Translations under genes and position numbers: made by a program | Notes under the pieces: model-generated | Told to the model about the DNA's origin: nothing | The model's database searches: none | What the model saw: only the letters and a program-made list of their open reading frames with translations | From: Escherichia coli | GTDB lineage: Bacteria; Pseudomonadota; Gammaproteobacteria; Enterobacterales; Enterobacteriaceae | Length of the DNA: 3,240 nucleotides | Reading direction: 5' to 3' (one strand) | NCBI RefSeq assembly: GCF_003334255.1 | Contig: NZ_QOWU01000124.1 | Part shown: one piece after another, positions 1 through 3,240 of the stretch | Position numbering within the stretch: position 1 is the stretch's first letter | How the letters are laid out: each line of letters opens with the position of its first letter

Positions 1-1
1 G

Positions 2-268
2 CAGTATCACGCAGAGCTGAAGAGTCTGACCGGTGCAGAAAGAACGGCGTTCATTGACGAGAACAACGGAAAATTGTCGATGAACGGGCTTATGCAGGAT
101 ACCCGGAAGAGACTGAAGGATTTGCGTAAACAGCGTGATGCCATTTACGCCGACAGTACTCTCAGTCTGGCGCAACAGTCGGCGATGGTGAAATCGGTTG
201 AGCGGGATATGAAAATTGCCGTGGATCGGTTTAACCGCGAGTACAACAAAAAAGTGGGAGTGGAGTAA
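2..268 (+). CDS. Hypothetical protein, C-terminal fragment (5' end outside window); charged, Lys/Arg/Glu-rich, probably helical
   Basis: Frame 2 is open from position 2 to TAA at 266-268 (88 codons), while frames 1 and 3 hit stops within the first 60 nt. The ORF track gives a 64-aa Met-initiated version from 74, but there is no convincing SD upstream of that ATG. Codon usage is enteric-like with rare Arg codons (2 AGA, 3 CGG). I do not recognise the product; it is not the CPS-53 integrase that follows argW in K-12. Confidence 0.5.
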   Translation, partial: QYHAELKSLTGAERTAFIDENNGKLSMNGLMQDTRKRLKDLRKQRDAIYADSTLSLAQQSAMVKSVERDMKIAVDRFNREYNKKVGVE

Positions 269-272
269 AGAA

Positions 273-300
273 CATGCCCCGTACGGAAGTGCGGGGCATG
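273..300. terminator. Perfect hairpin, 12-bp stem (one G-U pair) with GGAA tetraloop; possible intrinsic terminator, more convincing on the minus strand
   Basis: catgccccgtac (273-284) pairs with gtgcggggcatg (289-300) around loop GGAA (285-288). On the plus strand the stem is followed by cttaacggg (no U-tract). On the minus strand it is followed by UUCUUUACUCC, so it fits better as a terminator for transcripts coming from the yfdC/argW side. It sits 5 nt after the stop of the 2-268 ORF. Confidence 0.35.
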
Positions 301-390
301 CTTAACGGGATGTGTACATAAATGGGTACGGATATGACGATTATTTTGGTGCTTTCTGTATTTAAATCAATTAGTTAATACTTGTATTCA

Positions 391-414
391 TTATATCCAT
401 TTAACTAAGAGGAC
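391..414 (-). pseudogene. argW: tRNA-Arg(CCU) argW, 5' fragment only (acceptor-stem 5' strand plus D arm); gene truncated after about nt 24
   Basis: The minus-strand sequence 414->391 is GTCCTCTTAGTTAAATGGATATAA, matching the first 24 nt of E. coli argW as I recall it. It forms a canonical 7-nt acceptor strand, a TA linker and a D-stem GTTA/TAA with an AATGGATA loop. No anticodon arm, T-arm (GGTTCGATTCC) or 3' acceptor complement (AGAGGAC-N-CCA) occurs downstream or anywhere else in the window. Its position just downstream of yfdC matches K-12 synteny. Confidence 0.7.
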
Positions 415-425
415 AATGCGGCATG

Positions 426-431
426 AGTATA
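426..431 (-). promoter_or_regulatory. Putative -10 hexamer (TATACT) of the argW promoter, retained upstream of the truncated tRNA
   Basis: Minus-strand TATACT lies 12-17 nt upstream of the tRNA 5' end, a typical distance for a tRNA precursor promoter. The -35 is weak (TTACCC at 17-bp spacing). Sequence inspection only. Confidence 0.3.
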
Positions 432-489
432 CCCGCTAATGGAGTGCGGGGTAAGTACGCTGCCGCTCGATTGCTTAAACCCTCGCCAT

Positions 490-1422
490 TTATGCCGGGT
501 TTTTATAATTTTTCTTAATGTTTTCCGCACGTTCTGCTTTTTGGCGTGCTTCTGCTTTACGCTTATTGCTCATGTCGTTACGAATCTGTGCATGACTCAT
601 TAACGCGAAGATAAAGGTGCCGCCGCAGATGTTCCCCGCTAAAGTAGGTAGTGCGAAGGGCCAGATGAAATCGCTCCAGTGCAGCGTACCGTTAAACACC
701 AGATAGAGGATTTCAACAGAACCGACCACGATATGGGTGGTGTCACCCAGGGCAATAAGCCAGGTCATCAATATAATCACCACAATCTTTGCCGCACCCG
801 CTGCAGGAAACATCCAAACCATAGTGGCGATCAGCCAGCCGGAAATGATCGCGTTGGCAAACATCTCGCTGGGGGTGTTCTTCATCACATCCATGCCGAT
901 TTTGACAAATGCATCGCGAGTTTCTTCATTGAAGATAGGCATATATTCAAATGCCCACGCCGCAATACCTGTCCCGAGAATATTACCCAGCAGCACGACG
1001 CCCCATAACCGTATAAGTAAGCCGACGTTGCTCATTGTCGGTTTTTGCATGACGGGTAGTACCGCAGTCACGGTATTTTCGGTAAATAATTGCTGGCGGG
1101 CCATAATGACGATAATAAAACCAAAGGTATAACCGAGATTCTCCAGCAAGAAGCTGCCCGGCACACCTTCCAGTTCGACTTGAAATATCCCTTTTGCCAG
1201 TAACGAAGCGCCCATCGACAGACCCGCCGCAATGGCTGACCACAGTAGCGCCATTGCGTCGCGTTCCAGCTCTTTTTCACCATCCTGGCGGATATGCTCA
1301 TGAATTGCCATCGCCCGGGAGGGGAGTCGGTCTTCATCTATTTCTATTTTTTTGCCGCGCTCTTTTTCTTCGCTCTCAACTTCAATTTCGTCGCTGTGTT
1401 GATCAATTTTGTCGTTGTCCAT
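490..1422 (-). CDS. yfdC: Formate/nitrite transporter (FNT) family inner-membrane protein YfdC, 310 aa
   Basis: Complete 933-nt ORF from ATG (1420-1422) to TAA (490-492). The translation (MDNDKIDQHSDEIEV...NYKNPA) matches E. coli YfdC as I recall it, with a hydrophobic multi-helix FNT-like core. A purine-rich SD-like GAGAAGAGA lies just upstream of the ATG. It is divergent from mlaA, as in K-12. Confidence 0.93.
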   Translation of the reverse strand: MDNDKIDQHSDEIEVESEEKERGKKIEIDEDRLPSRAMAIHEHIRQDGEKELERDAMALLWSAIAAGLSMGASLLAKGIFQVELEGVPGSFLLENLGYTFGFIIVIMARQQLFTENTVTAVLPVMQKPTMSNVGLLIRLWGVVLLGNILGTGIAAWAFEYMPIFNEETRDAFVKIGMDVMKNTPSEMFANAIISGWLIATMVWMFPAAGAAKIVVIILMTWLIALGDTTHIVVGSVEILYLVFNGTLHWSDFIWPFALPTLAGNICGGTFIFALMSHAQIRNDMSNKRKAEARQKAERAENIKKNYKNPA

Positions 1423-1621: not shown

Positions 1622-1630
1622 CTGTTACAA
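1622..1630 (+). promoter_or_regulatory. Candidate extended -10 promoter element (TGtTACAAT) for mlaA
   Basis: TG at 1622-1623, one base, then TACAAT at 1625-1630 (5/6 to TATAAT). It lies about 85 nt upstream of the mlaA ATG; no good -35 at 17-bp spacing, consistent with an extended -10 promoter. Not verified. Confidence 0.3.
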
Positions 1631-1715
1631 TCGCCCACACCTAAACAGGCGGATACGGTATCGTTCCGTCATGGATGGCAAACTGCATAAGCCATAAAAA
1701 AACAGGGAGACATTT

Positions 1716-2471
1716 ATGAAGCTTCGCCTGTCGGCGCTTGCTCTGGGAACTACGCTTCTGGTGGGGTGTGCGAGTTCCGGTACAGATCAGCAAGGGCGTT
1801 CTGACCCGTTAGAAGGGTTCAACCGCACCATGTACAACTTCAACTTCAATGTATTAGACCCGTATATTGTTCGACCGGTCGCTGTCGCCTGGCGTGATTA
1901 TGTTCCGCAACCGGCGCGTAACGGTTTGAGCAACTTTACTGGCAACCTTGAAGAACCTGCGGTGATGGTTAACTACTTCTTGCAGGGCGACCCTTATCAG
2001 GGGATGGTCCACTTTACCCGCTTTTTCCTGAACACCATTTTGGGGATGGGCGGTTTTATTGATGTTGCAGGGATGGCGAACCCGAAACTGCAACGGACTG
2101 AACCTCACCGCTTCGGTAGTACGCTTGGTCATTATGGCGTGGGTTATGGGCCTTACGTTCAGTTACCGTTCTACGGTAGCTTCACGCTGCGTGATGACGG
2201 TGGTGATATGGCGGATGGTCTTTACCCGGTTCTTTCCTGGCTGACCTGGCCGATGTCTGTGGGTAAATGGACGCTTGAAGGGATCGAAACCCGCGCTCAG
2301 CTGCTGGATTCCGATGGTCTGCTGCGTCAGTCGTCCGATCCTTATATTATGGTGCGCGAAGCGTACTTCCAGCGTCATGATTTCATCGCTAATGGCGGCG
2401 AACTCAAACCGCAGGAAAATCCGAACGCACAAGCGATTCAGGATGATTTAAAAGATATTGATTCTGAATAA
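1716..2471 (+). CDS. mlaA: Outer-membrane lipoprotein MlaA (VacJ), phospholipid asymmetry maintenance (Mla pathway), 251 aa
   Basis: Complete 756-nt ORF with SD GGGAGA at 1705-1710, 5 nt before ATG 1716. The N-terminus MKLRLSALALGTTLLVGCASSG is a lipoprotein signal peptide with lipobox LVGC (Cys18). The full-length translation matches E. coli MlaA/VacJ as I recall it. Stop TAA at 2469-2471 is followed by a terminator. Confidence 0.95.
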   Translation: MKLRLSALALGTTLLVGCASSGTDQQGRSDPLEGFNRTMYNFNFNVLDPYIVRPVAVAWRDYVPQPARNGLSNFTGNLEEPAVMVNYFLQGDPYQGMVHFTRFFLNTILGMGGFIDVAGMANPKLQRTEPHRFGSTLGHYGVGYGPYVQLPFYGSFTLRDDGGDMADGLYPVLSWLTWPMSVGKWTLEGIETRAQLLDSDGLLRQSSDPYIMVREAYFQRHDFIANGGELKPQENPNAQAIQDDLKDIDSE

Positions 2472-2479
2472 GAAACAAA

Positions 2480-2515
2480 TAAAAAAGGTGAGTCGCAAAA
2501 CTCACCTTTTTTGTT
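2480..2515 (+). terminator. Rho-independent terminator of mlaA, potentially bidirectional
   Basis: Stem GGTGAGT (2487-2493) / ACTCACC (2500-2506) with loop CGCAAA, flanked by an A-run (2480-2486) and a T-run (2507-2512). It starts 9 nt after the mlaA stop. The A-run gives a U-tract on the minus strand, so it may also terminate the convergent yfdF-like gene. Confidence 0.75.
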
Positions 2516-2652
2516 GTTATCCCTCAATTACCACAAGTAAAAGGAGATAAACCGACAATGACCTAGACGTAATTATGTAAAAATACTGATGTTCGTCACT
2601 GACTATTTCCGATATTCAGCTGTTGAAAAATCAAAAAACTGGAAAAATAATT

Positions 2653-3164
2653 TTAAATATCATCAAAATTAACACCTGGCGCAGATGGTTGATTAATTTC
2701 ATTTTGATATTCAGCCTGGCGATTTTGAAGCCTTTCTTCAATTTTACCTTCGAGATCCTTAAAATGCTTATATATTTTTTGAGAATGGCCAACGTTAATT
2801 TTGTTACCGACTAAAGTAGAAACTATTTCTTTTAGATGGTCGCATTTATATTTTGCATCGTCCACTTGAAAATCATATCTTATTGCTCGACCATAACGTT
2901 TAAAAACGTCGTTTGGTTCTCTCAGTCTTTCCCCGTTGAGCTCGTTTACAACCTGATGATCGGAACCAGTTGCAAATGATTCTGCCATGATAGCTTTACT
3001 GCTTTCAAACCACGCTGAAGCACTCCTGGCGTTTTCACTACAATATTGGGTGAGACTATCACCATTAATACGAATTCCTCTTTGAATGTGGTAGTCGTCC
3101 TGATCGTAGTAACCGAGAGATAAGTAATCATTTCCGTTTTTATTTTTAATTACAATAGCGAGAG
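2653..3164 (-). pseudogene. yfdF: yfdF-like uncharacterised protein gene, 3' portion (about 170 codons); 5' part separated by IS1 insertion at 3164/3165
   Basis: The minus-strand frame is open from the IS1 junction down to TAA at 2653-2655 (translation ...LAIVIKNKNGNDYLSLGYYDQDDYHIQRGIRINGDSLTQYCSENARSASAWFESSKAIMAESFATGSDHQVV...NFDDI). The ORF track shows only the Met-initiated 111-aa tail (2653..2988). The yfdF call rests on K-12 synteny (fadL-yfdF-mlaA-yfdC-argW) and convergent orientation with mlaA; I cannot verify the protein sequence from memory. Very AT-rich (roughly 35% GC). Confidence 0.55.
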
Positions 3165-3187
3165 GGTGATGCTGCCAACTTACTGAT
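3165..3187 (+). repeat. IS1 left terminal inverted repeat (IRL, about 23 bp)
   Basis: GGTGATGCTGCCAACTTACTGAT is the canonical IS1 terminal repeat. The 9 bp to its left (3156-3164, tagcgagag) would be the target-site duplication if this is a simple insertion. Confidence 0.85.
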
Positions 3188-3219
3188 TTAGTGTATGATG
3201 GTGTTTTTGAGGTGCTCCA

Positions 3220-3240
3220 GTGGCTTCTGTTTCTATCAGC
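3220..3240 (+). CDS. insA: IS1 InsA (transposition repressor / transposase N-terminal part), first 7 codons only
   Basis: GTG GCT TCT GTT TCT ATC AGC encodes (M)ASVSIS, the InsA N-terminus as I recall it, at the expected distance from IRL. Truncated by the window end. Confidence 0.7.

Follow-up and report, generated by a model that had tools for sequence, protein, structure and literature searches.

A probable Stx/933W-like prophage junction at argW and an IS1 end abutting yfdF flank the intact yfdC and mlaA genes of an Escherichia coli contig

Short-tailed Shiga toxin (Stx) phages that reside at the transfer RNA (tRNA) gene argW of Escherichia coli have been described (PMC10132054), and diagnostic primers with a 442-bp product are available for the left junction of an occupied argW, that of the Stx2a prophage of O157:H7 strain TW14359 (PMC8309913). 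Here we analyse 3,240 nt of E. coli DNA (RefSeq assembly GCF_003334255.1, contig NZ_QOWU01000124.1; the whole stretch is hereafter the window) in which the right end of a prophage is followed by the core of a phage attachment (att) site, yfdC, mlaA, the 3′ part of yfdF and one end of the insertion sequence (IS) IS1 (Table 1). A preliminary description of this DNA had taken the two outer junctions for disruptions of argW and yfdF in a genome undergoing IS expansion and reductive rearrangement. We are highly confident that the whole is best explained by a Stx/933W-like phage integrated at argW together with an IS1 copy abutting yfdF, and everything in the window is already known biology.

The full window was compared by megablast with 5,426 complete E. 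coli genomes. Its closest relatives, G1/2, G8, G6/7 and SCU-104, are commensals of the human gut, and the near-identical loci that it matched bear the annotations ‘LPD38 domain-containing protein’, yfdC, mlaA and yfdF. Positions 1–3164 differ from G1/2 by two mismatches, both within the first 390 nt, and the three mismatches that separate the window from SCU-104 are all in mlaA and all synonymous. With a 200-nt query laid over positions 390/391, the junction between phage and host DNA was found to be spanned in 211 of the 5,426 genomes; about 5,200 align only from window positions 388–391 rightwards, with an intact tRNA-Arg gene contiguous with yfdC. Directly to the right of the boundary, window positions 391–414 are the reverse complement of nt 1–24 of argW, and the identity stops at exactly 24 nt. 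This short tRNA-identical core (TTATATCCATTTAACTAAGAGGAC) therefore sits exactly at the phage/host boundary, 390/391. The phage record LC727904, which is classified as Traversvirus, carries at both of its ends a 24-bp repeat_region annotated as ‘duplication due to insertion’, and its right-hand copy maps exactly to window positions 391–414. Primers argW-inR and argW-outF (Table A1 of PMC8309913) match the window perfectly at positions 223–244 and 642–664 and span 442 bp. Judged by these matches, 390/391 appears to be the canonical occupied-argW att junction of a Stx/933W-like prophage.

The DNA to the left of the boundary points to the same phage group. When window positions 1–480 were compared with phage records, 191 matched, mostly Stx1- and Stx2-converting short-tailed phages of the genus Traversvirus, and 111 records covered at least 80% of the query at 95–99% identity. 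The phage sequence of the window is collinear with the right end of Stx/933W-like short-tailed lambdoid phages (Sepvirinae, Traversvirus). The giant gene whose 3′ end opens the window is 8,382 nt long in relatives, where it bears the annotation ‘LPD38 domain-containing protein’ and closes the prophage on its right side. Beyond it, the AT-rich arm at positions 301–390 is missing from the approximately 5,200 E. coli genomes in which the 5′ side of argW is unoccupied. Bases 1–390, the last 390 nt of the prophage and the whole of the prophage sequence in the window, are the right-hand end of a Stx/933W-like prophage of the short-tailed type. Between the gene and the arm is a hairpin (positions 273–300) for which a fold energy of −25.3 kcal/mol (z −4.8) is predicted when the plus strand is folded, and one of −21.1 kcal/mol (z −5.0) for the minus strand; no canonical U-tract follows it on the plus strand, and a terminator scan made no call there.

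The prophage of G1/2 offers a view of related cargo. Downstream of its Q antiterminator gene (retrieved locus 35000–42400) are a Hok/Gef gene, the genes for a type I methyltransferase subunit (HsdM) and its specificity counterpart (HsdS), and a DUF6645 gene with a frameshift, and no stx gene is annotated in the portion of this prophage that was read. The G1/2 prophage appears to be an stx-less relative of the Stx phages that carries defence-type cargo.

What has become of argW is most readily seen in the relatives. No tRNA or other RNA family was detected in the window by ARAGORN or by Rfam at E ≤ 1, and the argW piece beside yfdC is therefore a mere fragment. In G1/2, ARAGORN calls a complete 75-nt argW, as tRNA-Arg(CCT), at the opposite prophage end, 62.9 kb distant; this argW reads through a second copy of the 24-bp core, and a tyrosine-type recombinase gene is located 196 nt from it. 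The left end of LC727904 has the same arrangement, with a complete argW beside the integrase gene. Because the junction in the window appears to be a canonical prophage attachment site, argW would have been duplicated in part and rebuilt, not destroyed, and these relatives lead us to infer that the source genome, too, has an intact argW where its prophage ends on the far side. The preliminary description had counted argW as a disrupted, dispensable accessory gene; the 24 nt are better described as a duplicated att core.

We hypothesize that the tyrosine integrase of a lambdoid (Traversvirus-type) phage recombined the 24-bp core common to the phage attachment site (attP) and to nt 1–24 of argW. 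The layout of the sequences is observed, and the enzymology of such integration is that established for the integrases of lambdoid phages. The product would read yfdC, the native upstream region of argW, the 24-nt remnant and the right end of the phage, and, after the remainder of the prophage, the integrase gene, a phage-supplied 5′ end joined to the rest of argW, and dsdC. A complete argW would in this way be rebuilt at the integrase-proximal end, and the 24-nt remnant would stay beside yfdC as window positions 391–414.

The crossover would fall in the 5′ part of argW, whereas phages usually recombine in the 3′ part of a tRNA gene. The DNA upstream of the rebuilt gene would therefore come from the phage, and the native upstream region would be orphaned and face the prophage. 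Positions 415–489 are presumed to hold the argW promoter region, in which we ourselves read the motif TTACCC-17-TATACT. A consensus promoter scan of the window made 5 calls against 5.7 expected from shuffled sequence, and TTACCC-17-TATACT was not among them. At the rebuilt argW of G1/2 the same kind of scan made 2 calls against 1.5 expected; a weak promoter-like sequence, TTGATT-18-TATTAT, lies 40 nt upstream of the gene (retrieved locus 13587–13730). Both scans are at chance level, and these promoters are therefore treated as presumptive throughout. Any regulatory consequence of a 5′ crossover in argW is speculation. Lysogeny might part the AGG-decoding tRNA argW from its native promoter and place phage DNA upstream of it, and the orphaned promoter might fire into the right end of the prophage, antisense to the LPD38 gene, up to the hairpin at positions 273–300; we consider this improbable. 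If either effect were of consequence, the phage would control the supply of a rare-codon tRNA, or a strong host promoter that responds to growth rate would act on the phage.

Table 1. Features of the 3,240-nt window, with positions counted from its first base
Feature	Positions	Strand	Basis
3′ end of giant terminal phage gene (last 88 codons and stop codon)	1–268	+	Annotation of G1/2 and SCU-104
Strong GC-rich hairpin just past the phage gene	273–300	both	Fold energy
AT-rich phage arm of the attachment site	301–390		Contiguous with phage sequence in phage records
24-bp attachment core, nt 1–24 of the tRNA-Arg(CCU) gene argW; partial duplicate, not a gene	391–414	−	Exact prefix identity
Host DNA upstream of argW and downstream of yfdC, now pointing into the prophage end	415–489	−	Host homology in all 5,426 genomes
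yfdC, formate/nitrite transporter family, 310 aa, intact	490–1422	−	Open reading frame (ORF) listing, G1/2 match
mlaA (vacJ), phospholipid-binding outer-membrane lipoprotein, 251 aa, intact	1716–2471	+	ORF listing, G1/2 match
Bidirectional intrinsic-terminator-like hairpin between convergent mlaA and yfdF	2481–2512		−20.9 kcal/mol, z −6.9
yfdF 3′ part, nt 548–1059 of 1059, about codons 183–352, in frame	2653–3164	−	Ungapped G1/2 identity
IS1 left end: terminal inverted repeat, insA GTG at 3220 and first 7 codons	3165–3240	+	IS1A identity

At the other side of the window, yfdF can be followed from its stop codon at position 2653 to position 3164 with no gap and no mismatch relative to G1/2 and with a matching translation; it then breaks off at nt 547/548 of the gene (window 3164/3165). 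From there on, positions 3165–3240 are identical at 76 of 76 positions to the IS1A copy of strain Combat13F7. They comprise the IS1 terminal inverted repeat, GGTGATGCTGCCAACTTACTGAT, and the start of insA, with its GTG at IS1 nt 56, in an orientation opposite to that of yfdF. A full IS1 measures 768 bp and has a second inverted repeat and a target duplication of 8–9 bp; the present copy is visible from one end only, and its second end and the target duplication lie beyond the window. The preliminary description, which had yfdF cut by IS1, is borne out as far as the boundary itself; the insertion as such is seen from one side. A second yfdF lesion within the window, suggested by a 111-aa ORF, was considered but discarded, as the frame stays open all the way between the IS1 boundary and the stop codon; the length of that ORF is explained by there being no start codon before Met-242.

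Two IS1 insertions in yfdF of other strains can be seen in full, at nt 27–35 in MB46 and at nt 431–439 in Combat13F7. Each is a simple insertion with a 9-bp duplication, unchanged neighbours and fadL still adjoining; the spans of the matching hits imply that EA13 and PEC414 have IS1 at nt 431–439 as well. With these two cases as a guide, the junction at yfdF nt 547/548 is likely to be a simple insertion, in which IS1 would have transposed into an AT-rich, non-essential gene. Such an event predicts a 9-bp duplication of yfdF nt 548–556, which would be CTCTCGCTA on the yfdF strand and TAGCGAGAG on the plus strand of the window. Alternatively, a deletion or inversion mediated by IS1 could have its breakpoint at 3164/3165; the retained part of yfdF would then have lost its 5′ half as a neighbour, perhaps together with fadL and DNA farther on. 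The single visible IS1 end is compatible with this, as are two BL21-derivative assemblies, Rosetta2-DE3 and BL21-RIPL, in which a 110-bp ‘mini-IS1’ (nt 1–55 joined to 713–768) links yfdF nt 765 to the rcsC region, an arrangement that reflects a real rearrangement or else a collapse in assembly. (Among the retrieved yfdF loci, IS1 copies are at L004 3743–4510 and L006 4148–4915, and the remnant is at L005 3501–3610.) Both fully visible insertions, those of the Combat13F7 type and of MB46, are simple, with 9-bp duplications and fadL next door, and we regard a rearrangement as unlikely, although with a real chance of being correct.

The exact IS1/yfdF junction is absent from the 5,426 complete E. 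coli genomes, in which the six best matches have IS1 at other yfdF positions, and it had no match in GTDB representative genomes and none in JGI metagenome contigs. At least three other IS1 insertions break yfdF in E. coli, and inactivation of the gene by other means is common. The 111-aa C-terminal YfdF ORF is recorded in 405 gene-index blocks, and the contigs returned for it contained no IS1; they carried point-mutation pseudogenes instead. In all ten of the contigs examined (L007–L016, locus 9278–10336), each of them fully syntenic, yfdF is a pseudogene, with at least four different lesions among them: nonsense mutations at codon 138, at codon 174 (three contigs) and at codon 223, and a 1-bp deletion at nt 535–543 (five contigs), which lies within a few bases of the point where IS1 begins in the window. 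The GC content of yfdF is 0.30–0.44, compared with about 0.50 for yfdC and mlaA, and the alleles of its 3′ part diverge: that of Combat13F7 (L004 3114–3742) is 94% identical to that of G1/2. The composition and divergence suggest that yfdF is a horizontally acquired, fast-evolving gene. IS1 in yfdF is one more inactivation of a low-GC, uncharacterised gene, and it lends mild support to the gene being dispensable in many niches. That yfdF is dispensable was already proposed in the preliminary description and is borne out by its repeated inactivation in other E. coli.

Both core genes are complete ORFs, and their products match WP_000368140.1 (YfdC) and WP_000776768.1 (MlaA) of E. coli G1/2 exactly; the gene identities first assigned to the window, and the intactness of yfdC and mlaA, are therefore confirmed. 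The breakpoints originally placed at 390/391 and 3165 also proved exact, given that host-only genomes align from 388–391 and IS1 identity begins at 3165. Nucleotide and amino-acid differences in yfdC and mlaA amount to 0–7 nt per gene among the fetched loci, too little to bear on selection. In assembly GCA_047151845.1, yfdC (retrieved locus 11746–12498) encodes a shortened protein of 250 aa, and two further genes, dsdA and emrY, are split. This assembly represents either a truly decaying genome or an error-rich assembly; as it stands, it shows that yfdC is not universally intact.

The bracketing of intact yfdC and mlaA by the two junctions had been attributed to IS expansion and reductive rearrangement; on this view the genome would be Shigella-like, argW truly truncated, yfdF destroyed, and yfdC and mlaA retained by selection. 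The presence in yfdF of an IS1 junction that is unique with respect to the 5,426 complete genomes accords with that proposal. So, too, does the possibility that the lineage is fairly IS1-rich, because G1/2, G8 and G6/7 each have 29–30 places that match the whole-window query, most of them probably IS1 ends, compared with a median of 10 per genome for the junction query. However, the left junction is a standard att junction, found in 211 ordinary complete E. coli genomes, at which argW is rebuilt. The relatives with the same prophage junction are 5.2–5.3-Mb gut commensals with an intact yfdF and a collinear fadL–yfdF–mlaA–yfdC neighbourhood, yfdF is inactivated without any IS in many syntenic genomes, and 3.2 kb measures neither IS load nor genome reduction. 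We therefore find the proposal unsupported and judge it very unlikely. At least two kinds of phage use argW as a dedicated hot spot for integration, and an integrase gene, of the KplE1/HK620 type, directly follows yfdC–argW in six of the ten contigs examined. Because argW is such a hot spot and yfdF is inactivated again and again, a phage end and a broken yfdF around yfdC–mlaA are the expected coincidence of a hot spot with an often-decayed gene.

Both ends of the window lie inside repeats, a prophage gene at one and exactly 76 nt of IS1 at the other. The 3,240 nt have the look of an entire short-read contig that breaks off at repeats (76 would be k − 1 for k = 77), which restricts what the window can tell about either flank. 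Ends of this kind are also what would be expected if one or both junctions were assembly artefacts, in a chimeric contig joined at repeated elements. We consider this extremely unlikely, as hundreds of independent genomes and phage records have the phage/host junction in identical form, down to the base, and the IS1 junction falls exactly on the first base of the terminal repeat, as real transposition would have it.

Several points weigh against phage integration at argW combined with IS1 at yfdF. The window contains one prophage end, and it is only in relatives that the integrase, an intact argW and a second copy of the att core are seen. Likewise, it contains only one IS1 end, and the exact IS1/yfdF junction is absent from every collection searched. 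The remnant that joins yfdF nt 765 to rcsC makes an IS1-associated rearrangement at yfdF possible. The sequence identities, the positions of both junctions and the state of argW in relatives are direct observations, and on these we continue to favour integration of a Stx/933W-like phage at argW and an IS1 copy, inferred to be a simple insertion, next to yfdF. The finding matters little beyond correct annotation. In practice, a tRNA-gene fragment that lies at a sharp junction with phage DNA marks an att site and should not be scored as gene loss or genome decay.

Set beside known systems, the IS1 end resembles other (IS1A-type) insertions in yfdF, a gene that has been hit independently in other strains: its left end is perfect and its orientation is that of Combat13F7, whereas its position, nt 547/548, is found in none of the searched collections. 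The phage junction corresponds to the occupied argW of Stx/933W-like prophages (Stx2a of O157:H7 TW14359; Stx1 and Stx2 phages in O26, O111 and CC119), with a right-end sequence that is 97.9–99% identical in the records listed, the same 24-bp core, the same position beside yfdC and the same 442-bp diagnostic amplicon. In contrast to the Stx prophages at argW, the near-identical prophage of G1/2 has HsdM and HsdS and, in the part read, no annotated stx. KplE1 (CPS-53), HK620 and P22-like prophages also target argW next to yfdC. Those elements sit 3′ of argW, with the integrase gene directly after yfdC–argW; the phage of the window, unlike them, recombines within nt 1–24 of argW, which places the whole prophage between yfdC and the rebuilt tRNA gene.

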